DNA from: Gammaproteobacteria bacterium
Lineage (GTDB): Bacteria; Pseudomonadota; Gammaproteobacteria; Ga0077536
Direction: 5' to 3'
Assembly (NCBI GenBank): GCA_963662545.2
Contig: CAXXLL010000003.1
Span: forward strand, 2,432,001 to 2,496,000
DNA: 64,000 bases
Part shown: positions 36,712 to 60,591 of the stretch, piece after piece
Position numbering within the stretch: the stretch's first letter is position 1
How the letters are laid out: the number at the start of each line of letters is the position of its first letter
Notes under the pieces: generated by a model
Database searches by the model: none
Told to the model about the DNA's origin: nothing
Seen by the model: the letters and a program-made list of their open reading frames with translations, nothing else
Translations under genes and position numbers: made by a program

Positions 36712-36842
36712 CATAACGCCCTTTATTATCGTAATCGTCGCCGTTTTGGGGGCGGCATCGCGGGCCGAGGAACGAGCCCCGAGCTTGGATTGAGCCGTAC
36801 ATTCTAGGCGACGAGTCACTTTGCGGGGGCCGTAGGGCGGGC

Positions 36843-37167
36843 GGCTTCTCCGTTCATGCCGGCCTGGCCGCCGCGCCGTGGGCACGCAACAAGCTCGAAC
36901 GTCTCACCTGCTACATCACCCGCCCCGCGCTCTCCGAAAAACGACTCTCGCTGACCGCCCACGGCCTCGCGCGCTACGAACTCAAAACCCCCTATCGTGA
37001 CGGCGCCACGTCCGTGTTCTTCGAACCTCTCGATTTCATCGCCCGGCTCGCCGCCCTCATCCCCAAACCGCGCATCAACCTCATTCGCTACCACGGCGCC
37101 AGGTAATCTACTTGAGCCCCCAACAGCACCCATCGCGCCGCCGTCACACCCGCCAGGCAGGGGCGCT
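36843..37167 (+). mobile_element. ISCR/IS91-family transposase fragment
   Basis: GFSVHAG...KLERLTCYITRP...LKTPYRDG...LAALIPKPRINLIRYHG. Confidence 0.85.
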
Positions 37168-37330
37168 TCGAGGTCTATGCCAATCGCGCGGAACCCGAAT
37201 CTGGACACGCCGCCGTACTGGACACGCGAACAGATAGACTCCTTTTTACGACCGGCGCCGCCTGCCCAAACTCGCGGCATCGCCTGCGCACGGGATAATA
37301 TGCGTCATTGATCCGCAGCGGGAGTCGATC

Positions 37331-42642: not shown

Positions 42643-42869
42643 GGGGCGATTTCCGCTGCCTTGAATCAACGGATCCTCCTTGAAAATTCGACCTGAGTAA
42701 TTTTAGTTTGTTCCGGCGTGCGGAACACAAGCGGTCGGGCTTTGCGGGGTCGGTGCGAGAGCTGTCATGCCGAGCACCTCGTGGCGTTCAGTTGCAAACG
42801 GCGCGGTTATTGCGCCAGCTATCGTTGTGCAGGTTAGGCGAATTTGCGCGGACGTACGTCGAGCCTAGA

Positions 42870-48662: not shown

Positions 48663-48799
48663 TATGACTTCCCCTTTTCAGTTTCGGTTTTCGATGCTGG
48701 TATAGATTATAGATTAAGGGGTGAAGTCAACCGCGCGTAAGTCGGGGTGTACGCCACCAACAATGAGCGCCTACGCTTCTAGCGCGTCAAGGCACCGAC

Positions 48800-48982
48800 A
48801 AACGTGGAACTGGAAACGCTTGTGCAACGCCTCAGCGTGCGCATCGGCCGGCACCGTGAGTGCCAGGGCCTGCTGGTCCGGGATATCGACAACACTTATC
48901 TCGCCTTCGAGCCGCACGATAACGAAAGCATGGCCCGACTCGCTCCGCTCATCCCTGAACCGCGGGTCAATCTCATTAGGTG
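48800..48982 (+). mobile_element. ISCR/IS91 transposase fragment with an internal deletion
   Basis: RIGRH..QGLLVRDIDNTYL joined to MARLAPLIPEPRVNLIR. Confidence 0.7.
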
Positions 48983-50315: not shown

Positions 50316-50415
50316 ACTAGCCCGGATATTTCACCAGTACGCGGGATGATCGCGCCGGCGAGGTTCGACGGAGCGCAAGACCCCATACCGCGATGGGACT
50401 ACACACGTCATCTTT

Positions 50416-50486
50416 ATTCCGGGCATCCTGCCCCCCACCCTTCGGGCCAGCCTACGGCTGTTCAAAATCGCTCCCGGCGATTTTGT
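50416..50486 (+). repeat. Four-hairpin element, copy A (71 nt)
   Basis: Removal restores ATC TTT GAG (I-F-E) of the ISCR transposase. Confidence 0.8.
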
Positions 50487-50500
50487 GAGGCGCTGGAATT

Positions 50501-50572
50501 GATGGCGCACTTCCCTGTGCGCCACCCTTCGGGCGACCTCCGGTCTTCCAATTTCATTCCCGATGAAATTGT
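50501..50572 (+). repeat. Four-hairpin element, copy B (72 nt)
   Basis: Same architecture; lies between the LE and HGVF codons of the ISCR transposase. Confidence 0.8.
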
Positions 50573-51376
50573 CACGGCGTGTTCGTACCGAACAGCACAC
50601 ACCGCGCGCGGGTAACACCGGCCAAGCGGGGCAGGGGCGGTCAGCGTACTGCGCCGATAGATCCGGAGGAGCCGACACCGGCGGAACGCCGCGCTGCCAT
50701 GAGCTTTAAGCACAACGCCTGAAACGAGTCTTCGTCATTGACATCGAGATATTCCCGACTTGCGCGGGGCCGTGCGGATCATCGCCTGCATCGAAAACGC
50801 CGTGATCATCGAGCAGATCCTCAGCCACCTTGACAAGAGAAGTGTCGTGGCCGAATTCTCCCGGCTGCCGCCATGCCGGGCGCCACCCCACACGAGCCTG
50901 TTCGACTGAACCTGGCTGCCCAGTGAGCCACACTCACGGCTGCGATACTGAGCGTCGCGGCAAAGGTGGCAGCTGACCAGAAGGTCGGCACCCAGCGCCG
51001 GCAGTCGCGTGGCCGAGGTCAATTCGGGAGGCGTCATGTCAGTCTGAGGCACTTCATGGCTCAGAGCGACGGCCGAGCGACGAAAGCAAGGAGGGAAAGC
51101 TGCCGAAGAAAGGCCGTTTATACCGCTTACACGTGCGACCGAAGCACGACGAAACTGAGTGGATAGAGATACGGACCTGCAATCCGAATAGATCGTCCTT
51201 TCGCTTTTGCCCACACCCGACGAGATCATCCAATCTCGGCCTTCCGCCATCCCTAGTATTTGCGGAGTTCTACCGAACTCAGTTCGGATCGCGGCCCTCG
51301 CAGCCAGAAGACGTGACAGCCAATGTCACACACGGCAGCGGCGGTCGTTCTGTCCCCAGGCCCGTGAGGGGCGCGA

Positions 51377-52108
51377 TCACGTGCGATAGGCCGGGTCTTC
51401 ACGGTCGAGGTGGCGTAGGAGGGCCTGGAAGCCAACCTCGCCAAAGTTGCGGTCGCCGACGCCTTGCGCTGTCCTGACGGTGTGTTCGACCACGTCCGGC
51501 GGTGGTATGACGAGGTCTCCACCGCCCGCTTGCGCCGCGATCTGGATCTCACATGCGCGTTGGAGGTGGTCCATCAGGGTGTACGCCTCGGTGATCGTGC
51601 GGCCGTGCGTCAACGTGCCGTGGTTACGGAGAAACATCATGCGCTTGTTGCCGAGGTGCTCGACGAAACGCGGCCGCTCCTCAGCTCTGAGACCTGGACC
51701 CTCGTAATCGTGGTAGGCGAACTGTCCATGATACGTGATGCCGAACTGGTTGAGCGGCAGCAGGCCTTCTTTTTGGGCTGAGACGGCGATCCCGGCGACC
51801 GTATGTAAATGCATGACCGAGCCTGCCTCGGGAACGGCATCATAGGTGGTCTTGTGGACGATCCAGCCGGCGGCGTTCGCCTCGCCGGGCGAGGAGCCAA
51901 CGTTGTTGCCATCGCGATCGATCGTCAGCAGCGTGGACGCGGTCACCTCATCGAACAACATGCCAAAAGCGATGAAGAGGAAGCGCTCCGTTTGATCGGG
52001 CAAGCGCGCCGAGAGATGCGTGAAGATCCCATCGTCGAGGTTGCGGCGCGCAAAATCACGGTAGCATGCCGCTAGCTGGAGCCGGGTTTCCCGTTCGTCG
52101 GCAGTCAT
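51377..52108 (-). CDS. Class II aldolase/adducin family protein
   Basis: THLSAR, FDEVTAS, VMHLHT, LRNHG. Confidence 0.9.
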   Translation of the reverse strand: MTADERETRLQLAACYRDFARRNLDDGIFTHLSARLPDQTERFLFIAFGMLFDEVTASTLLTIDRDGNNVGSSPGEANAAGWIVHKTTYDAVPEAGSVMHLHTVAGIAVSAQKEGLLPLNQFGITYHGQFAYHDYEGPGLRAEERPRFVEHLGNKRMMFLRNHGTLTHGRTITEAYTLMDHLQRACEIQIAAQAGGGDLVIPPPDVVEHTVRTAQGVGDRNFGEVGFQALLRHLDREDPAYRT

Positions 52109-52387
52109 CTCACATCCCTCCTCCCAAAAACAGCCCTGGTCGCAAACCGCCTACCAGCGCCCAAACCGAAGAAATGGAAGGGCGACAGCTCGAACGTCAG
52201 GAAGACGGGCTCGTCCCGTTCGAGGTGCGGCTGCCCATCGTGCTTCCGGCGGCTCCGATCTGGGTGTATTCAGGTCGGCAGTAACGTCGATGGTCGCGCC
52301 GACGGTGACCGACGGCCGACCGCCACGCGCCGCGATCACGTTCCGGTCACCACTGCTGAGATGAATGAGCGCACGCGCTTCATCGCC

Positions 52388-53164
52388 TCAGTCCGTTCCA
52401 AAATAGAAATTCAGCATAGCGTCGGTGACCTCATGCGGACACTCGACAGGCGTCCAGTGTCCACATTCCGTAAGAATGAACATCTCGGCATCGCCGATCG
52501 ATTCCACGAGGCGCTTCACCGCAGCGGGCGGGGCAACCGCATCCTCATCGCCGGTTATGAGGAGTGTCGGGCAGGTTATCGCCGTCAGGTCTGCTGATTG
52601 TGCCGCCGACAAGGCCTCGCAGTTGCGCGCATATCCTTCCGCCGATTGGCGCACCAGCAATTCGCGCACGAAGGCGGCTCGCTCGGAATGGCTGACCTTG
52701 GTTGCCGCGGACGTTGCGACCTGGACGAGCGTGTCGCTGACGGGCCGCATGTCCTCGCTGCGCGCGGTTGCCGCCCGGTCACGAAGGGCTCCACGCGCCG
52801 GCTCGGGAGGCTCGGCGAGCGGACCCAGAAGAACGAGGCTCTTGACGCGCTGGGGCTGCGCTGCGGCAACGTGCTGGCAAACAATCGTGCCCATCGAATG
52901 TCCCGCGAGGTGCGCCGAACTGATACCGCGACTATCCATGAGCGCCACGACATCGGCCACGTGGCTGGCGATCGTGATGTCGCCCTGAGCGGGCGTGAAG
53001 CCCGAGCCTTCGAGGTCGGGCCGGATCACCGTGAAGAAACGGCGCAACGCACCAACCTGAGGTCCCCACACGTTCGCGTTGCCCCCGAGCCCATGCACCA
53101 TAATCAGGGCATCGCCTTCACCGTCCGTCTCGACCGAGTACTCTTTGTCGTTGAGCGATTCCAT
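52388..53164 (-). CDS. Alpha/beta hydrolase
   Basis: VHGLGG, GHSMG, GDED, CGHWTPVE; paralog of 38674-39453. Confidence 0.85.
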   Translation of the reverse strand: MESLNDKEYSVETDGEGDALIMVHGLGGNANVWGPQVGALRRFFTVIRPDLEGSGFTPAQGDITIASHVADVVALMDSRGISSAHLAGHSMGTIVCQHVAAAQPQRVKSLVLLGPLAEPPEPARGALRDRAATARSEDMRPVSDTLVQVATSAATKVSHSERAAFVRELLVRQSAEGYARNCEALSAAQSADLTAITCPTLLITGDEDAVAPPAAVKRLVESIGDAEMFILTECGHWTPVECPHEVTDAMLNFYFGTD

Positions 53165-53397
53165 CTCACCCCCCCAAGCTTCGCATGAGACGTAACAGCG
53201 CATACTTGCAGAATTGGCCGCAGGTGACGAGGGGGTGTCGTCCTGCCCCGACAGCCTGAGGCCACCCGTGCTACTGGATATCAGGCGTGGACGGCCTTTG
53301 GATTCTGGCGCCGAACTCGGCGCTGGCGGCGTTGCCGCGCTTGGAAATAGAACCACTAACGCGTGCGCACGGCGCCTTGCCTAAGAAAATGATATGG

Positions 53398-53446
53398 CCG
53401 ATTTCAGGGCGCAACACGGCCTCGTATAATTTTGAGACCGCTTCTA
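53398..53446. repeat. 49-bp inverted repeat (MITE-end-like), left of the monooxygenase
   Basis: Reverse complement of 54729-54777 with 3 mismatches. Confidence 0.85.
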
Positions 53447-54682
53447 TAGATGATCGTAGTCCTCGAGGGCGATCGAATTCGCCGCCTTCTGGATGAGGTC
53501 ACCGATTGAACCTTCGGGCGGCGCGTCCGGCGGCGCGTCGCGCATCGCCCGCAGCGCCGCATTCTGCTCTTCGATTTCTTCCCACGTTTGCGGTAGCTGC
53601 ACTTCCTTGGCCTTCAACGCGATTTCCTGGTTCTGCCGCATGTAAGCCCGACACAGTTGTTCGTAACGGACGTAGGCCGCGCGATAGTCGCCTGCGGCGG
53701 CTGCCAGTTCGCCTGCAAGGACATATGCGCCGACGAACGCCATGCTCGTACCCTGCCCCGTGATCAGGGTCGGAGCGTAACCCGCATCACCCACGAGTGC
53801 GATCCGGCCCTTCGACCAGGCATCCATGCGGATTTGACTGGCGTCGTCGAAATAGAAGTCTGGCGCGTGCCGCATCTCCGCCATCAACCGTGGGAAGTGC
53901 CACCCGGCTTCCGACGCGTACGTTTTCGCGACGATAGCCATTTGCTCTTCAATGTCGTGATGGTCGTAGTCAATTTTCGGGCAGGAAAATATGATCAAGG
54001 CGCGAGTGTGTTTACCGGTTCCGTACTGCATGACGGCGGCCATCTTTTTCGGCACGTAATGCATCAACCAGACACGGTCGAGATTGAGAAAGTTCGGGAT
54101 CGTGAAAACCGCTACATGCTGGCCCAGGTAATGACTGAATTGTGCTTCTTCGCCGAAGCACAATGCTCGGACGTTGGAATGTGAGCCGTCCGCGCCGATC
54201 ACGAGATCAAATCTTCGCGTGGCGCCGTACTCGAAGCCGACCTCTACCCCATCGTCACGCTCGCACAGCGACGTAATCGAATCACCGAAAATATAGTCGA
54301 CCTTATCTTTCGTGGCCGCGTAAAGGATCTGGGCCAGATCGTCACGCAGCAGTTCAACGTCACCGGCCTCGCCACCACCCGCTCCAAAGTTCGCGTCTAT
54401 ACTCGCCAGCGTTTCGTCATCGCCGCCGACAAACAAGATTTCGCGCAGGTCCGTGCCCGCACTGCGTACATCGGCGATGATGCCCATGCGTTCAGCGACG
54501 TCAACGGCGGCACCACGTAGATCGATCGCGTAGCCGCCGGTACGCAGCGCGGGGGATCGCTCCACTACGGTGGGCTTAAATCCGTATCGTTCTAACCAAT
54601 AAGCGAGACAGGGGCCGGCCGCGCTCGCACCGGAAATAAGGACAGTCATGGGCTCCTGTTGATGGCCGTTCTTCTTGTTCAT
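53444..54682 (-). CDS. FAD-dependent (class A) monooxygenase
   Basis: GASAAG, GADG.HS, DFYFD, GRIALVGDAG..P..TGQG. Confidence 0.9.
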   Translation of the reverse strand: MNKKNGHQQEPMTVLISGASAAGPCLAYWLERYGFKPTVVERSPALRTGGYAIDLRGAAVDVAERMGIIADVRSAGTDLREILFVGGDDETLASIDANFGAGGGEAGDVELLRDDLAQILYAATKDKVDYIFGDSITSLCERDDGVEVGFEYGATRRFDLVIGADGSHSNVRALCFGEEAQFSHYLGQHVAVFTIPNFLNLDRVWLMHYVPKKMAAVMQYGTGKHTRALIIFSCPKIDYDHHDIEEQMAIVAKTYASEAGWHFPRLMAEMRHAPDFYFDDASQIRMDAWSKGRIALVGDAGYAPTLITGQGTSMAFVGAYVLAGELAAAAGDYRAAYVRYEQLCRAYMRQNQEIALKAKEVQLPQTWEEIEEQNAALRAMRDAPPDAPPEGSIGDLIQKAANSIALEDYDHL

Positions 54683-54728
54683 GAGGCGCTCCTTCGTCCT
54701 GGAATTGTTGTTGGTCCAAAATACTAAT

Positions 54729-54777
54729 TAGAAGCAGTCTCAAAATTATACGGGGCCGTGTTGCGTCCTGAAATCGG
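54729..54777. repeat. 49-bp inverted repeat (MITE-end-like), right of the monooxygenase
   Basis: TAGAAGCAGTCTCAAAATTATACGG... Confidence 0.85.
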
Positions 54778-54784
54778 TGATGGC

Positions 54785-55379
54785 TCTGTCGGGCAAAGTT
54801 GGCGATAGGTCTGCTGCTGCTGGCGGCTGCAGGCGCTGCCGTGGAAGACCAGACCACTTCGGCCGGTCCGGACAGCAGGTCGGCAATCGCCGCATTCGAA
54901 ACCGCGTTGGCGGCGCTGGAACGCGACGGCGGCGCGCAGGATCCCGGGCTGACCGAGCTGCTGATCGGTCTGGCCAGGAGCTACGAAGGGGCACGTCGGG
55001 AGAGCGAGGCGTTGCAGGCGTACCGGCGTGCCTGGCATGTCCAGCGCATCAACGTCGGCCTGCACAACCTGCAGCAGGAACCACTCGTCGATGCGATCAT
55101 CACGCTCGAGGCCAGGCGCCACAACTGGGAAGCCGTGGCGGACAGCCATGACTACCTGCTGTGGCTTTACCGCCGCAACTACAGCGACCACGATCCGCGC
55201 TGGCTGCCTGCGGCGAAACGGCTGCGCCGCTGGCACCTCGACGCCTACCGATTACCCACCGGCCGTGAGTTCAGCGACCACCTGGATGCGCAGATCTGGT
55301 TGTACCGAAAAGCCATCGACATCATCGAGACGCACACCGGTGATCGCAGACTCGCGCAGTGTTTCTGGGATGAACGTTG
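54785..55379 (+). repeat. 595-bp direct duplicate of 49584-50178 (ORF 54799-55443)
   Basis: Near-identical; at least 3 substitutions seen. Confidence 0.9.
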
Positions 55380-56007
55380 CGCTTTTCCAGAAACCCTTCC
55401 AGATCGAAACCTGCGTAATTCCAATGAACCTCCCGGGCTTTAACCACTGAGCCCCAATATCCTTTCAACCCACGGATGCCAGGCCGCGCCACAGACAGCC
55501 GCGGACGCGCTCGATTTGAACACGCCGATCTCAAGTCAACGACGCATCTCCACCCAACGGACTCGTCATTCCACCTCCGCCTGACCCACGACAATCTCGC
55601 TTCCAGCTTCGTCCCAGGCCTTCGCTTCACAACTGATTAATCGACACATGGGCTTTGTTTTTCTTATACGTCCCGTCACCCGAGCGGCATACTTTTCTGC
55701 ACGTTCAATGTTGGAATGCGTATCGTAACGTTAAACAACGATTTGGCATGGTGACCCTGCCCGGAATTCCTGGTCCAGATCTAAAGTGATAAAAAGATGA
55801 AAAGAGGTGTCAACGGCGGAGCAAAATTAGTCCACCCGGGCGGAGCAAAACCAGTCCACTTAACGTTATGCGGTACGCAGTGTTGGGGGGTTGTCCCGGT
55901 AGTCCATAGGAGGGACCCGCGCTGCTTCGTGTAGCGCTTGCGTTACGCGGAGCGAAGCAGCGTGGGAGGTTCCTGTGGACCCACCGGGTCAACCTTGAGT
56001 TCGGTGG

Positions 56008-56777
56008 TCAAGCAGGCGTATTTGGGGATTTCCGCCGTTTTTGGCTTTGGTTGAGACGATAGCTCTCGCCGTTCATTTCCAGGATATGGACAGGGTGGGT
56101 CAGGCGGTCCAGCAAAGCCCCGGTCAGACGTTCCGAGCCGAATATCTCCGTCCACTCATCGAACGGCAAGTTGGAGGTCACCATGATCGAGCCCCGCCCG
56201 TAGCGCTGGCTGAAGACTTCGAACAGCAGCTCGGCGCCGGTCTTCGAGAGCGGCACGAAGCCGAGTTCGTCGATGATCAGAAGGTGATACTTTGCCAGTT
56301 GCTTCTGCAGGCGCAACAGGCGTTTTTCATCCCTGGCCTCCATCAGTTCATGAACCAGGGCGGCGGCCGTGATGAAGCCGACGGAGAGCCCCTTTTGGCA
56401 GGCCGCCAGACCGAGACCGAGGGCGATATGGGTCTTGCCGGTTCCGCTGTTGCCGAGCGCGATGATATTCTCACGACGCTCTACGTATTCGCATCGCGCC
56501 AACTCCAGAACCAGCATCTTGTTGAGCGAGGCGATGGCCTTGAAGTCGAAGCTGTCGAGGCTTTTGACGGCGGGGAACCTGGCCTGTCTGCTCCGCCGCT
56601 CGACCATGCGGCGCTCACGGTCGATCAGTTCCAACCCGGTCAGACGGACAAGATACCGCACAGGGTCGGCGCCCCGGTGGCGCATTGGCGGGCCAGCTTG
56701 TCGTATTCGCGCAGGAACGTCGGCAGTTTCAGGGTCTTGAGGTGATGGGCCAGCAACACTTGCGGCGTATCGGTCAT
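56008..56777 (-). pseudogene. istB: IS21 helper ATPase, frameshifted near 56675
   Basis: MTDTPQVLLAHHLKTLKLP in one frame; GNSGTGKT, LIIDELG, LLDRL in another. Confidence 0.85.
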
Positions 56778-58273
56778 GACGCGCCTCCACCCAACAAGCT
56801 CATATAACTGGCGGCGGCCGTGGTCGCCACGTTGGCCCGAGGCAGGTAGGGATAGATATCCAGGTCGAGTTTGGGCGGGCGTCGCTCGATACGGCACAGC
56901 ACAAGGTGTTTGACGGCGTCGTAGCCGATCGCGCCCAGGCGCAGGGCGTCCTTCACCGCGCCGTGAAGCACCTCGAGATCGAAGGTCTCCAGAAGCCGAA
57001 GGACCTGGACGTATTCCCGCTTGCCGGCCTTGCCCATGCGCGCCTCCAGGAGACGGCGCAGGGTTGGGAAGGCATCAGGCAGTTCCCATCCGGCTAGCGG
57101 CGCGGCCTGATCCAGGGCACCGATCCTGTGCTCCAGCAAAGGCAGGTAGTGGATCGGATCGAAGACCCTATCTTCCCGGTCGCAGGAACGGGGGTGTCGG
57201 GCAATGATCCCGGCGCCGCAACCGATAACCACCTCGTGGACATAGCCACGGATCCAGACTTCCTGATGGCCGTAGGCGACGGGCACGGAATAGTCATTCG
57301 TCCGGTAGCGCACCAGGGACAGCGAGTTGACCCGCGTGCCCTGCCTGTCGCACGCGTCGAACGGTGCCGGCAGTGGCCTCTTCAACGCTTCGCGGTCACG
57401 CACAAACCGTTCGCCGATGCTCTCGCGGTGGCCGCGCAGGACGTCGTCTTGCCGTTTGCGGCATTGTTCCTCCAGGTAAGCGTTGAAGGCGTCCCAGCTC
57501 GCGAACCGGGGAAGCGGCGTCATGAAGTTCCGTCGGGCGTAGCCAACCACCCCCTCAACATTGCCTTTGTCGTTGCCCTTGCCGGGACGGCCGTAACGGT
57601 CCTCGAAGAGGTAATGGGACTGCAGTCCGCTGAACGCTCGCGTTCGTTGTCGCGTGCCATCCGGCAAGATGCGCGACACCAGGCACTTGTCGTTGTCGTA
57701 GAGAATCGATCGGGGAACACCGCCGAAGAAGGCGAAGGTTCTGTTGTGCCCGTCCAGCCAGGCCTCCGTCGTCGCTGACGGGTAGGCCGCAACGAAGCAG
57801 GCATCGCTGTGGGGAAGTGTCATGACGAAAAAATGCGCCCGATACCTGACGCCGGCGATGATCGCATCCGCCTCGCCAAAGTCCGCTTGAGCATGGCCCG
57901 GAGGATGTGACAACGGCACAAACATCTCACGCCGACGAAGGCGCCGTTCCCGAACGTAATCCTTCACGATGGTCTCTTTGCCCGTGAAGCCATGTTCGTC
58001 GCGAAGGCGCTCGAATATACGCTTCGCCGTGTGGTGCTGCTTACGGTGAACCGTTCGGTCCTCCTCCAGAATACGGTCGATGATATCCGTGAAGGGGGCC
58101 CGTTTCGGGCGTTTCGGTGGCTGGCGTCGCCGATATCCCGGCGGTTCCGAATGCCGCAGCATCTTCCTCACCGTCTCGCGCGCAATGCCAAACCGACTTG
58201 CCGCCTCTCGCTGGCTCAGACCATCAACATGGCAGGCCAGCCGAACGCGCAGATATAGGTCCACGGTGTACAT
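56774..58273 (-). CDS. istA: IS21 transposase
   Basis: HTH, AQADFG, LYDN, KGNVE. Confidence 0.95.
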   Translation of the reverse strand: MYTVDLYLRVRLACHVDGLSQREAASRFGIARETVRKMLRHSEPPGYRRRQPPKRPKRAPFTDIIDRILEEDRTVHRKQHHTAKRIFERLRDEHGFTGKETIVKDYVRERRLRRREMFVPLSHPPGHAQADFGEADAIIAGVRYRAHFFVMTLPHSDACFVAAYPSATTEAWLDGHNRTFAFFGGVPRSILYDNDKCLVSRILPDGTRQRTRAFSGLQSHYLFEDRYGRPGKGNDKGNVEGVVGYARRNFMTPLPRFASWDAFNAYLEEQCRKRQDDVLRGHRESIGERFVRDREALKRPLPAPFDACDRQGTRVNSLSLVRYRTNDYSVPVAYGHQEVWIRGYVHEVVIGCGAGIIARHPRSCDREDRVFDPIHYLPLLEHRIGALDQAAPLAGWELPDAFPTLRRLLEARMGKAGKREYVQVLRLLETFDLEVLHGAVKDALRLGAIGYDAVKHLVLCRIERRPPKLDLDIYPYLPRANVATTAAASYMSLLGGGAS

Positions 58274-58387
58274 CCTCCCGCCTTCCATCTCAAAAAAGAT
58301 CGAAGGCTACAGGTGGCAGAGTTTTACTCCGCCCGCGGCTGGGAAATCCCGCCGCTTCCGTGGACTAATTTGTCACCGCCGTTCTCA

Positions 58388-59277
58388 CTCGCGAACCGGG
58401 GAAGCGGCGTCATGAAGTTCCGTCGGGCGTAGCCAACCACCCCCTCAACATTGCCTTTGTCGTTGCCCTTGCCGGGACGGCCGTAACGGTCCTCGAAGAG
58501 GTAATGGGACTGCAGTCCGCTGAACGCTCGCGTTCGTTGTCGCGTGCCATCCGGCAAGATGCGCGACACCAGGCACTTGTCGTTGTCGTAGAGAATCGAT
58601 CGGGGAACACCGCCGAAGAAGGCGAAGGTTCTGTTGTGCCCGTCCAGCCAGGCCTCCGTCGTCGCTGACGGGTAGGCCGCAACGAAGCAGGCATCGCTGT
58701 GGGGAAGTGTCATGACGAAAAAATGCGCCCGATACTTGACGCCGGCGATGATCGCATCCGCCTCGCCAAAGTCCGCTTGAGCATGGCCCGGAGGATGTGA
58801 CAACGGCACAAACATCTCACGCCGACGAAGGCGCCGTTCCCGAACGTAATCCTTCACGATGGTCTCTTTGCCCGTGAAGCCATGTTCGTCGCGAAGGCGC
58901 TCGAATATACGCTTCGCCGTGTGGTGCTGCTTACGGTGAACCGTTCGGTCCTCCTCCAGAATACGGTCGATGATATCCGTGAAGGGGGCCAGTTTCGGGC
59001 GTTTCGGTGGCTGGCGTCGCCGATATCCCGGCGGTTCCGAATGCCGCAGCATCTTCCTCACCGTCTCGCGCGCAATGCCAAACCGACTTGCCGCCTCTCG
59101 CTGGCTCAGACCATCAACATGGCAGGCCAGCCGAACGCGCAGATATAGGTCCACGGTGTACATCCTCCCGCCTTCCATCTCAAAAAAGATCGAAGGCTAC
59201 AGGTGGCAGAGTTTTACTCCGCCCGCGGCTGGGAAATCCCGCCGCTTCCGTGGACTAATTTGTCACCGCCGTTCTCA
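58388..59277 (-). mobile_element. istA: Partial second IS21 copy (890 bp, duplicate of 57498-58387)
   Basis: Tandem copy ending at the same terminal IR; 2 substitutions seen. Confidence 0.9.
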
Positions 59278-59438
59278 GAAACCGGCGCCTGTGTGGAATT
59301 GTATAAGTGCACCCGTCCATCTGCGTCCCCGATGATGTTTCGGTCTAACCAATTCCATGACCACATCCCGGCTCCGATCAACAACAGCCAATAGATGAGA
59401 GACCCCAAAGTCGTGCTCTGCTGATTCGTGGTCGCCAT
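59278..59438 (-). pseudogene. Small membrane protein truncated by IS21
   Basis: ORF with a TM segment runs into the IS21 end. Confidence 0.45.
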
Positions 59439-59584
59439 ACCGCAGGCCCATCGTAATCTACCTGTTCCGGTATCGGTCTATTTCGGCGCTACTTGAGGCG
59501 GGCGGGGGGAAACGGGTTAGTTTAGTTATTCTTTATACCTTAGCTTCGAGAGAAGGATTAAACCAGACCCCACATAAATGCAGA

Positions 59585-59650
59585 TGGCGAAAGAGGCGGG
59601 AGTCGAACCCGCCAGACACACCTTCGTGCGTCTCACCGGATTTGAAGTCC
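59585..59650 (-). pseudogene. selC: 3' two-thirds of a tRNA-Sec gene (att-like fragment)
   Basis: GGA-CTTCAAA-TCC (UCA anticodon), long variable arm, GGGTTCGACTCCC, GCCA end; D-arm absent. Confidence 0.8.
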
Positions 59651-59821
59651 TCGTCTTTCGATAAACCGCAACGATCTACAACACCTCACAGCAAATCATT
59701 CAGTGACTTAATTCGCAATCGTTGTCGCCTTTCGTTGTCAGTATTTGTGACCGTTTGTATTCAAGTGTCCCATGAGTGTCCCACGGCTACCACGCGGATT
59801 CGGCACACCCCCTCCCCCTAC

Positions 59822-60591
59822 AGCGACGAGGCTTTTGCCCCAGTTGCGGTGCTTAGGCAACATGGCTGAGAGTGCGGCGCTGCTGGTGGACGAGGTCTTT
59901 CCCGAACAGCCAGTACGTCAATGGGTGCTGAGCTTTCCGTATCCATTGCGTTTTTTGTTTGCCAGCCGTCCAGCAATCATGGGCCACGTGCTCGGCATCG
60001 TTTACCGCTGCATTGCCACGCACTTGACTAGTAAGGCGGGGTATTCCTGCACAGTAGCCCGCACTGGCGCGGTCACGTTGATCCAGCGGTTCGGAAGTGC
60101 GTTGAACCTCAATCTTCATTTTCACATGCTCTTTCTTGATGGTGTCTACGTTGATAGCGCAACTGGATCGAGCACCCGATTTCGCTGGGTGAAGGCGCCG
60201 ACGGGTGCTGAGCTGACCCGCCTGACGCACACCATCGCTCAGCGCGTCGGGCGCTTGGATGCGCGCCATCCTTGGCGCGCCCCCTTCGGGCGCACTGCGT
60301 GCGTCCAAATTCACTCCAGGTGAATTTGTCTGGAACGCCAGGGGCTGCTGGTACGTGATGCCGAGAACAGCTATCTGTGCGCGGAGGCCATGGACGTGGG
60401 GTCGTTCGATGAACTCCTGGGTCACTCGATCACGTATCGCATCGCGGTGGGCCCGCACGCCGGCCGTAAGTTGTTCACCCTACAGACACTGCCGGACTGC
60501 AATGACCCGTTCGTTGACCAGGTGGGCAAGGTGGCCGGCTTCTCGCTGCATGCTGGTGTCGCAGCGAGGGCGGACGAACGCAAGAAGTTAG
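59822..60591 (+). mobile_element. ISCR/IS91-family transposase remnant
   Basis: RGFCPSCG, MAESAALLVD, RQWVLS.P, QRFGSALNLNLHFHML, GFSLHAG. Confidence 0.9.
60258..60329 (+). repeat. Four-hairpin element, copy C (72 nt)
   Basis: Removal restores QRVGR(L)LERQGLLVRD in frame. Confidence 0.85.

Follow-up and report, generated by a model that had tools for sequence, protein, structure and literature searches.

What are the short structured blocks that interrupt transposase genes in this gammaproteobacterial genome? The window analysed here, the whole stretch of 64,000 nucleotides, holds several remnants of ISCR-like genes, two of which contain three such blocks, copies A, B and C (Table 1). All three have arisen by insertion of a small mobile DNA that is related to the E. 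coli small-RNA gene rrB and breaks ISCR-type transposase genes. The family, labelled R1 below, comprises small, non-coding, non-autonomous mobile elements of 66-73 nt with three or four hairpins.

Three insertions in decayed ISCR-like genes

By their homology to Y2 HUH transposases, and by a conserved oriIS-like block downstream of ISCR genes, the interrupted genes belong to the ISCR/IS91 family. The intact neighbour gene that we used as reference scores 696 bits against the NCBIfam ISCR clade Ia model, under its cut-off of 925, and 105 bits against IS91. It matches Pfam Y2_Tnp, and a query made of part of the gene and its upstream region has 75% DNA identity to plasmid genes annotated as 'IS91 family transposase'. 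The element is absent from all full-length ISCR ORFs examined and from five intact classical IS91-type genes of the genome, and every ISCR copy that carries it is a broken relic. Empty-site ISCR alleles, which the initial annotation had proposed to look for, do exist, and the full-length genes contradict the possibility it raised that intact ISCR homologs natively contain these segments.

Table 1. Element copies and ISCR-like genes (window positions unless a contig is given)
Feature	Position	Strand	Remarks
Copy A	50416..50486	+	71-nt four-hairpin element, 'A-type' subfamily; 81.6 bits (covariance model)
Copy B	50501..50572	+	chimeric element; 80.9 bits (covariance model)
Copy C	60257..60329	+	73-nt block replacing C of TTC codon, GRF↓LERQ (residue 234); 88.6 bits
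ISCR-like (IS91-family, Y2 HUH) transposase fragment, decayed, C-terminal	50350..50912	+	reference residues about 343-499; frameshifted; bears copies A and B
ISCR-like transposase fragment, truncated, with HUH motif region	59859..60590	+	reference residues 103-321; bears copy C
ISCR-like fragment without element	36825..37202 (C3:2468825-2469202)	+	residues 298-419; no covariance model match
Smaller ISCR-like fragment	42742-42819 (C3:2474742-819)		no covariance model match
Smaller ISCR-like fragment	48744-48941 (C3:2480744-941)		no covariance model match
Intact reference ISCR-like CDS	L030:403-1902	-	

A covariance model built from 32 copies of the genome finds exactly these three copies in the window, at 81-89 bits. 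Each forms four hairpins when folded as DNA (minimum free energies of -19.0, -19.8 and -25.7 kcal/mol for A, B and C), with z-scores of -4.9, -6.2 and -6.9, and none of 200 shuffled sequences folded equally well. The single four-hairpin fold proposed by the initial annotation is therefore correct, as are its coordinates (50416-50486, 71 nt; 50501-572; 60258-329), its in-frame TGA in copy C and the absence of target duplication at the junctions. Some details need amending. Copy C is 73 nt long (60257-60329) and stands in place of one C; and the supposedly invariant CCCTTCGGG is invariant within the three window copies, not across the family.

Copy A lies at ...THVIF↓EPLD, behind the Phe codon (reference residue 363; the arrow marks the insertion point), with ...THVIF on one side and E(A/P)L(E/D) on the other. 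An unrelated MAG (L087) has an insertion at the same site, and so does a second ISCR copy of the genome (C3:2504299). Copy B is composite: its hairpins 1-3 are those of the type at DF↓IA (residue 368), its hairpin 4 is that of the type at RF↓HG (residue 386), and the 18 codons that separate these sites in the intact gene, previously counted as about 17, are absent. Both parent insertions persist, 51 nt apart, at C3:2214058-2214264, while the chimera and the A+B arrangement of the window are common to a congener (L038). Two R1 copies within one gene can evidently recombine and delete the intervening stretch, which is the origin of copy B and agrees with the earlier suggestion of two recombined insertions. 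As for copy C, comparison with close empty alleles shows a single C turned into the 73-nt block, a net gain of 72 nt. In contigs of run X6, position 60256 is joined to 60330 with only 'C' in between, so that copy C is skipped; depth over the window copies is 0-0.66 in the assembled RNA contigs of two metatranscriptome runs. The many contig 'skips' at 55.8-59.3 kb were disregarded because they stem from multi-copy IS DNA.

A precisely inserting family throughout Gammaproteobacteria

The covariance model, a step suggested by the initial annotation together with a covariation test, revealed at least 59 R1 copies in the genome when 150 of 2423 candidates were scored; this count and those of the class-wide pattern scan are lower bounds. 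In the 32-copy alignment, 91.5% of cells are paired and 18 of 25 pairs show double changes, a level of covariation reached by none of 500 shuffles, and slid controls are 34-44% paired. Compensatory change is strong. Class-wide, loops and unpaired bases are conserved while stems covary. A TCC in the loops of hairpins 1 and 4 is nearly invariant (hairpin 1: 54 of the 57 scorable class-wide copies among the matches listed), and the reverse strand accordingly presents GGA in two hairpin loops. The two ends of R1 are unlike each other, as are the two end hairpins, and target duplication was found at no junction; inverted pairs, nested copies and truncated copies all occur. These features support the non-autonomous, structured insertion element envisaged at the outset.

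Insertion is precise, 3' of TT and 5' of C, with TT↓CG as the best site. The C is retained at TT↓CG sites, one C is lost at several Phe codons, and the register shifts by 1 nt at some sites. Insertions were seen in spare tRNA 3' ends (at TT↓CGAA of the T-loop), in a copy of a 5S 3' end, in a MITE, in another R1 and at TTC (Phe) codons of ISCR genes. The 168-bp MITE offers clean empty/filled pairs: besides 17 copies of 163-168 bp, there are longer copies of 231-234 and 300 bp that hold one or two 66-nt units at TTTT↓CG. Similarly, three genomes (G000, G063 and G023) have intact genes with an empty ISCR site 386, and in two others (G058 and G004) this site is filled. The filled site in G058 contains a variant of copy C with two loop-base differences, and a near-identical element variant thus occupies two different ISCR sites in two genomes. 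We distinguish 12 ISCR sites, 10 of which are at Phe codons, in a gene where 20 of 26 TTC triplets are in-frame Phe codons. Inspection by eye for guide-like complementarity between hairpin 1 and target flanks gave nothing consistent.

R1 occurs throughout Gammaproteobacteria, where most copies among the matches listed are intergenic or lie in copies of tRNA or 5S 3' ends. Of the 87 class-wide matches listed, 19 have a tRNA gene no more than 300 nt away, 17 in antisense orientation, and the tRNA-near copies are lodged in GGTTCG↓..↓AATCC of a duplicated 3' end. This bears out the initial annotation's statement that similar repeats lie inside tRNA remnants of other proteobacteria. In the genome under study, six R1 copies lie near tRNAs; the csrA gene is present, and the spacer between it and tRNA-Ser contains a weak family copy.

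The initial annotation also supposed that the family may be partly known, and so it is, with a spread across the class wider than that annotation saw. In E. coli K-12 the model has exactly three matches, full length, in the T1-T2 spacers of rrnA, rrnB and rrnD, each at 76.8 bits (E 3.7e-19), with nothing else at E<=0.01. These matches correspond to the core parts of rrA, rrB and rrF, small RNAs of the 'tRNA-linked repeat' (TLR) group. A BLAST search with a Kluyvera copy matched only 11 of 5426 E. coli genomes, at unannotated places; it took the covariance model to bring out rrA, rrB and rrF. Against Rfam 15, the element gave no match in the window at gathering score, and four loci and the E. 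coli rrnB spacer gave none at E<=1. Very many cloning vectors carry the rrnB T1-T2 spacer.

What was known of these repeats? According to the accessible text of PMC8144298, rrA, rrB and rrF are the three rRNA-operon members of the tRNA-linked repeats, which had stood unexplained since 1978 (Egan and Landy 1978 and Rudd 1999, cited there). In 2021 the E. coli copies were described as small RNAs that bind CsrA and Hfq and whose origin was unknown; transcription of RrB is documented, as is its binding to CsrA, via GGA motifs, and to Hfq (PMC8144298). That text describes no mobility, TT↓C target, class-wide spread or copies in transposase genes. Mobility is not treated in the literature that we found on tRNA-linked repeats, element sequence strings gave only unrelated text matches, and searches on REP/IS91 and on T-loops and repeats returned nothing relevant, subscription journals being outside the scope of all these searches.

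Why ISCR genes?

ISCR-like DNA amounts to 22 kb, or 0.4% of the genome, and holds 26 of the 42 four-hairpin copies listed, against an expectation of 0.17. The enrichment that the initial annotation proposed to check is genuine: in this lineage, R1 occurs in ISCR-like genes far more often than expected and disrupts them. It is not exclusive, as had been claimed from the window, since the remaining copies of the genome lie elsewhere and, class-wide, only 4 of 80 loci among the matches listed are within IS91-type genes. Nor are copies always co-oriented with the host gene, as 20 are in the same orientation and 6 in the opposite one. The remaining 670 kb of repeated, IS-like DNA (>=90% identity) contain no four-hairpin copy, an imperfect control because old ISCR relics were exposed to insertion for longer than young IS copies. 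In other genomes of the family, 8 of 29 ISCR loci carry the element, and ISCR-like genes of unrelated MAGs have been struck as well.

On the most probable reading, the window copies are insertions of a mobile, ISCR-enriched element, R1, that would have moved as folded single-stranded DNA by means of an HUH-type or similar enzyme acting in trans, as IS200/IS605-derived elements and REPs do. That R1 parasitises rolling-circle transposons, as the initial annotation suggested, is likewise an inference. ISCR genes may be hit often because rolling-circle transposition would expose them as single strands. The copies would now do nothing beyond keeping dead genes dead. Reading R1 from the opposite strand would give an RNA with GGA in two hairpin loops, the CsrA-binding feature of RrB. 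We found no cognate mobilising enzyme for R1. The genome lacks a classical IS200-type TnpA and has only RAYT-like Y1 genes (best Y1 match, of RAYT type, E 6e-13; one RAYT-like gene at 79.8 bits against a cut-off of 80), and 1.5 kb on each side of 4 of the 7 Y1 matches gave no model match better than 9 bits. Across the genomes sampled, Y1_Tnp matches occur in 20 of 26 with the element and in 6 of 15 without it, figures that are descriptive only as the genomes are related; the other 6 element-bearing genomes have no such match. Replication-strand orientation showed no bias (10:6, 12:14 and 9:8), in a rearranged genome with weak GC skew.

Could the enrichment instead be a matter of history, with a few ancient insertions into ancestral ISCR elements inherited, passed on among ISCR copies through gene conversion while these diversified and changed hosts, and followed by neutral decay of long-lived relics? 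We hold this somewhat unlikely. Subtypes do track sites (A-type at 363, 367, 390, 305 and 97; a six-base-loop type at 190, 368 and 444; the B/C-type at 386 and 234), a correlation explained equally well by repeated targeting and by inheritance, or gene conversion, within ISCR lineages. Both the A+B arrangement shared with the congener and the broken state of all ISCR copies with an insertion agree with such a past. Yet with at least 12 separate sites, 12 insertions must have struck a gene family accounting for 0.4% of the genome; one variant is found at two sites, copies with and without the element intermingle at 80-86% identity, and unrelated MAGs are affected too. Distinctly improbable in our view is that the ISCR/IS91 transposase itself mobilises the element, as a parasite landing in cis near the place of enzyme synthesis. 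Enzymes of the IS91 type are HUH nucleases and leave the target unduplicated (accessible text of PMC13181058), and all 16 genomes with a Y2_Tnp match, out of 41 sampled, have the element, with no match in the 15 element-free genomes; but this link may merely reflect copies inside ISCR genes. Against it, 10 of the 26 element-bearing genomes have no Y2_Tnp match, some with 6-12 copies, E. coli K-12 has its three copies, and the intact classical IS91-type genes of the genome are untouched. The oriIS block downstream of ISCR genes shows no likeness to the element ends, and ISCR ends were on that account rejected as a model for the element.

We give an equally low probability to a functional role of the copies, either as small-RNA genes like that of RrB or as RNA structures acting in cis, in CsrA titration or another RNA task, with only an incidental location in ISCR genes. 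The class-wide conservation of loops over covarying stems, the transcription of RrB and its binding to CsrA and Hfq (PMC8144298, accessible text), the csrA gene with its neighbouring family copy, and GGA in two loops of the reverse strand all speak for an RNA. In the window, however, the strand with GGA runs antisense to remnants of dead genes, chimeric copy B and the nested or truncated copies resemble junk, and precise insertion at TT↓C is left unexplained. The segments are hardly credible as native parts of the transposase genes (a module translated in frame, or an insert that is spliced out or bypassed), although the net 72 nt at sites 386 and 234 equal 24 codons and two site-234 copies read without in-frame stop. 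The gain is 71, 73 or 74 nt in other subtypes, an in-frame TGA or TAA is present in most copies, and the empty intact genes, together with non-genic copies in tRNA and 5S remnants and a MITE, led us to reject the in-frame coding idea.

Significance and relation to known systems

Membership of a mobile, class-wide family that targets TT↓CG (the T-loop) provides tRNA-linked repeats with a testable origin. ISCR elements move neighbouring genes by rolling-circle transposition, and a small element preferentially landing in and killing their transposase genes would be a rare case of predation of one mobile element on another. If the single-strand idea is true, R1 is a natural probe for ISCR intermediates. 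A bolder reading, which we regard as rather unlikely, makes the element a self-spreading CsrA-binding RNA module, a mobile DNA that would seed GGA-hairpin sRNA units behind stable-RNA genes and selectively inactivate rolling-circle (ISCR) transposons while they are single-stranded; it would explain the origin of both the E. coli tRNA-linked repeats and the dual rrn terminators. For annotation, one covariance model recognises ISCR pseudogenes split at Phe codons as well as "dual terminator" spacers.

Like REPs, REPINs and their RAYT systems, R1 consists of short structured intergenic repeats that form inverted pairs and duplicate no target, in a genome with RAYT-like genes. It differs in its three or four dissimilar hairpins in place of a single palindrome, in numbering about 60 copies rather than hundreds, and in a sequence conserved over the whole class rather than species-specific; it does not flank RAYT-like genes and its presence does not track Y1 across genomes. 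IS200/IS605 elements and their gene-less derivatives (PATEs) share with it hairpins near both ends and precise insertion 3' of a short fixed sequence, with neither target duplication nor terminal inverted repeats, but R1 has no cognate small Y1 TnpA, its end hairpins are dissimilar and no replication-strand bias was detected. MITEs differ by their terminal inverted repeats and duplicated target. Rickettsia palindromic elements are small structured repeats within protein-coding genes, where the frame is sometimes kept; the hosts of R1, in another class, are broken by stops and frameshifts, and only some subtypes keep the frame.

The known relatives are rrA, rrB and rrF. They share with R1 a common family of sequence and secondary structure, recognised by a model made from this genome's copies only, and GGA in hairpin loops of the RNA strand, a motif that R1 has on its reverse strand. 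Each lies within a downstream copy of a stable-RNA 3' end, leaving an 18-19-nt repeat, and many R1 members are placed likewise; the window copies, in contrast, lie in ISCR gene fragments and not behind an rRNA or tRNA gene with 18-19 nt of end identity. The accessible text of PMC8144298 treats rrA, rrB and rrF as conserved sRNA genes of Enterobacterales only.

Fold of the element and its family in the genome

Copies A, B and C of the hairpin element each form four hairpins when folded as single-stranded DNA, with free energies of -19.0, -19.8 and -25.7 kcal/mol, where shuffled sequences average -7 to -11 (z = -4.9, -6.2 and -6.9; none of 200 shuffles folded as well). The initial annotation was right about both their places and their fold. 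The opposite strands fold equally well. Scanned simply for hairpin 4, the entire genome under study (G000; 5.58 Mb in three contigs, with the window at C3:2432001-2496000) returned dozens of look-alikes and, in an alignment of 32 copies, the four-helix structure is paired in 91.5% of cells, against only 34-44% in a slid-partner control. Changes on both sides affect 18 of the 25 pairs, and the covariation score is 0.497 versus 0.164 in shuffles (none of 500 scored as high); RNAalifold, unaided, recovered three of the four helices. Across the family, loops are conserved and stems covary.

A covariance model named R1, as is the family, was trained exclusively on copies from G000. It matches copies A, B and C and nothing else in the window, and has at least 59 matches in G000 among the best 150 of 2423 candidates scored. 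Visual sorting assigns 42 of the 59 to a form with four hairpins and 71-74 nt (type I), and 17 to a shorter, three-hairpin unit of 66 nt, frequently in tandem (type II). Some copies are nested within hairpin 4 of others, 3' of AATT.

Insertions in ISCR-like genes and their junctions

The frames flanking the window copies are pieces of an IS91-family, ISCR-like transposase; in copy C, a TGA inside hairpin 4 closes an open frame of 190 codons. With the intact 500-residue gene as tblastn query, G000 presents 40 ISCR-like loci, fragments almost throughout, summing to 22,166 bp (0.40% of the genome), and the window region resembles a graveyard of ISCR relics. The only intact gene, our empty-site reference, scores 696 bits on the NCBIfam model 'ISCR element clade Ia', below its cut-off of 925, also matches IS91, and is about 75% identical in DNA to annotated plasmid IS91-family transposase genes. 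It reads uninterrupted through the A/B sites (...THIIF/EPIDF/IARLAALVPKPRVNLTRF/HGVF...) and the copy C site (...RIVRY/LERQ...). None of the three window segments is present in it, so that these are insertions, as initially proposed, and the opposite possibility, that intact ISCR homologues natively contain them, does not hold.

Coordinates of the element copies and related features
Feature	Location	Strand or orientation	Remarks
Copy A	window 50416-50486
Copy B	window 50501-50572
Copy C	window 60257-60329
ISCR-like fragment	window 36825-37202		element absent
ISCR-like fragment	window 42742-42819		element absent
ISCR-like fragment	window 48744-48941		element absent
Intact ISCR-like transposase gene (reference)	C3:2499002-2500501	minus	500 aa; 3 kb right of window end; element-free
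Ten co-oriented sites	reference residues 72, 95, 190, 234, 305, 363, 368, 386, 390, 439	gene orientation
Two opposite-orientation sites	near reference residues 367, 444	opposite
Surviving pair of parent insertions	C3:2214058-2214264
Longer MITE	C3:1087829-1088062
Longer MITE	C2:2528506-2528805
Classical IS91-type genes	C2:626393, C3:8278, C3:921389, C2:1618238, C2:614567		intact frames, 266-406 aa; three hits identical
Multi-copy repeat block	window 55807-59277
csrA, weak family copy, tRNA-Ser	C3:2532411-2532964
ALIL pseudoknot	L038 2093-2209
tRNA-Lys and tandem units	L072 1380-2160

An ISCR-like match (E<=1e-40) was found in 31 of 81 genomes of the same family. Strong copies (at least 62 bits) lie inside 8 of the 29 ISCR loci fetched from other genomes, one to three per gene; among the fetched loci, the full-length ORFs of genomes G063, G004, G061 and G052 have no copy inside the gene.

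Twelve positions of the ISCR gene are hit in G000 and its relatives, and every co-oriented site falls at a Phe codon (Tyr in the reference at 234). This link to Phe is compositional: in an ISCR gene of 65% G+C, 20 of the 26 sense-strand TTC triplets are in-frame Phe codons. The junction rule is that the element lies 3' of TT and 5' of C, with no duplication of the target. The C is retained at TT/CG sites (363, ATT/CGAG; 390, ATT/CGCG; and two on the opposite strand, ..T/CGAT), while alignment of empty and filled genes shows it replaced by a block of 73-74 nt at sites 386, 234 and 190, the net gain being +72 at 386 and 234. Contigs from public run X6, which may be paralogues or alleles, join window position 60256 to 60330 through a single C. 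Insertion at TT/C(G) is precise and free of duplication.

Copies also recombine with each other. In copy B, hairpins 1-3 match the site-368 type (seen in fetched loci L172, L188 and L042, and at C3:2214185) and hairpin 4 the site-386 type; the left flank stops at residue 368, the right one begins at 387. Elsewhere in G000, both parent insertions are retained, 51 nt apart. These hybrid hairpins, flanks and surviving parents show that copy B arose from two co-oriented insertions with deletion of the 18 intervening codons, bearing out the earlier suggestion of a recombinant. A second such product joins sites 95 and 305 in locus L183.

Mobility and the preference for ISCR-like DNA

Clean empty/filled pairs within one genome are provided by a 168-bp MITE with 22-bp terminal inverted repeats, present outside the window in about 29 paired copies across G000. 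Seventeen of these are of the short form (163-168 bp), the others measuring 231-234, 264-300 or 394 bp, and alignment shows that the 234- and 300-bp versions equal the short form plus, respectively, exactly one and two type-II units (66 nt each) at TTTT/CG; across the MITE copies, a filled one may hold one, two or more such units. Since the type-II unit ends in T-runs and CG follows, the target is re-created with each insertion, which would account for the tandem type-II arrays.

Could the occupied ISCR sites merely reflect history, a few old insertions having been inherited and spread among ISCR copies? Shared arrangements exist, the copy B chimera being common to the congener G001 (locus L038). 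Yet the copy C variant, at site 234 in the window, occurs again at site 386 in genome G058 with two loop differences only, in an ISCR gene otherwise uninterrupted. Site 386 is itself occupied by differing variants in ISCR lineages 40-80% identical to the reference, and empty site-386 copies (61-86% identity) are interleaved with filled ones. We consider this main rival to repeated insertion rather unlikely. Beside the A+B arrangement shared with G001 lies a match, at 105 bits, to the ALIL pseudoknot (Rfam RF01497), which is a frameshift signal of IS3 type.

Type-I copies fall within ISCR-like DNA in 26 of 42 cases, whereas its genome share predicts 0.17; 20 of the 26 have the orientation of the gene and 6 the opposite one, contrary to the initial view that they are always co-oriented. 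That the element targets ISCR genes is right as an enrichment and too narrow as a rule, since there are also tRNA, 5S, MITE and intergenic copies. A reading in which any dead mobile DNA offers a safe landing place does not account for this pattern: repeated DNA (identity of at least 90% over at least 500 bp) makes up 674 kb of G000 (about 12%, in 319 segments, mostly IS-sized pieces), only 4.5 kb of it ISCR-like, and the non-ISCR part holds no type-I copy, the remaining 16 being located elsewhere. This control is imperfect in that young IS copies are more recent than the ISCR relics. No copy was found in the five intact classical IS91-type genes of G000 either, which narrows the bias to the ISCR-like subgroup. 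It is strong and apparently new. The window also holds a multi-copy repeat block whose summed depth across public runs is very large.

By analogy with IS200/IS605 and REP systems, the element may move as a single strand, guided by its hairpins, with an enzyme supplied in trans. ISCR genes would then be favoured because rolling-circle transposition exposes them single-stranded, and a strand-specific step would fit with co-oriented sites outnumbering the others 10:2. The ISCR enzyme is an unlikely driver: the element is present in all 16 genomes with a Y2 transposase match, but such a match is lacking in 10 of the 26 element-bearing genomes. The oriIS block downstream of ISCR genes shows no likeness to the element. 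G000 has seven Y1_Tnp matches; two of the genes examined look like REP-associated tyrosine transposases, scoring 79.8 and 65.8 bits where the cut-off is 80, none of four checked is flanked by the element, and Y1 presence does not track element presence across genomes. No replication-strand bias is visible in G000, where GC skew is weak and rearranged.

Spread beyond ISCR genes and relation to tRNA-linked RNAs

R1 detects family members in 26 of 41 sampled genomes of the same class (10 of 17 families), and an exact-pattern scan with one genome per species gives at least 119 loci. Among the matches listed are Serratia, Yersinia, Brenneria, Kluyvera, Sodalis, Methylomonas, Thioalkalivibrio, Halomonas, Ectothiorhodospira, Paraglaciecola, Steroidobacteraceae and many MAGs labelled Gammaproteobacteria. 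IS91-type homology appears in only 4 of 80 fetched loci. A tRNA gene lies within 300 nt of 19 of 87 copies, 17 of which are antisense to it; in G000, 6 of the 16 non-ISCR copies are within 300 nt of a tRNA, the remainder lying between ordinary genes. In the cases read, a partial second tRNA 3' end stands 50-90 nt behind the intact gene and the element splits its T-loop (GGTTCG/element/AATCC...CCA), a junction that reads GGATT/CGAACC on the element strand. Near-identical sequence occurs in 14 public runs from nine studies under nine coded organism labels, with weaker matches in metatranscriptomes, two labelled sponge metagenome; the source organism may be host-associated.

The family is also found in Escherichia coli. 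R1 matches the K-12 rrnB T1-T2 spacer over its full length (76.8 bits, E 3.7e-19), and the entire chromosome has exactly three matches, the rrnB, rrnA and rrnD spacers, namely the genes described as rrB, rrA and rrF by Stenum et al. (2021, PMC8144298). There, the RNAs are described as made by T1 read-through and then processed, as binding Hfq and CsrA, the latter depending on GGA motifs of which two occupy hairpin loops, and as conserved across 12 Enterobacterales genera. They are counted among 22 tRNA-linked repeats (TLRs), recognised because the 3' end of the preceding tRNA or rRNA gene recurs as an 18-19-bp repeat; the TLRs 'thus far ... have no known function' (PMC8144298). The length of this repeat would equal the span between the insertion point in the T-loop and CCA. 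The rrnB element itself lies within a partial second 5S 3' end, with GTT before and CCC after it on the element strand.

Through rrA/B/F, the family is partly known, as an enterobacterial small RNA gene; mobility, the TT/CG or T-loop target, class-wide spread and ISCR bias appear new. Rfam 15 has no family for RNAs of the rrA/B/F type, the term TLR is confined, in the literature searched, to PMC8144298 and an editorial, and R1 was not previously known as a class-wide insertion element or an occupant of ISCR genes.

The strand complementary to the initially annotated one has GGA in the loops of hairpins 1 and 4, the kind of loop through which RrB binds CsrA (PMC8144298); its complement TCC is near-invariant in the 32-copy alignment and is found in 54 of the 57 class-wide copies that could be scored. 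The genome encodes csrA. Copies A-C are credited with no function at present, since their GGA strand runs antisense to fragments of dead genes and the RNA contigs leave them uncovered. A weak family copy (29.9 bits) lies between csrA and tRNA-Ser in G000, its GGA strand being the csrA sense strand, a curious placement for a module that, from its sequence, would be of CsrA-binding type. Locus L072 (Serratia sp.) has an intact tRNA-Lys and, behind it, three units of about 273 nt in tandem, which all close with the 3' end of that tRNA, its T-loop split by the element; these units resemble the classic tyrT-type tRNA-linked repeats of E. coli.
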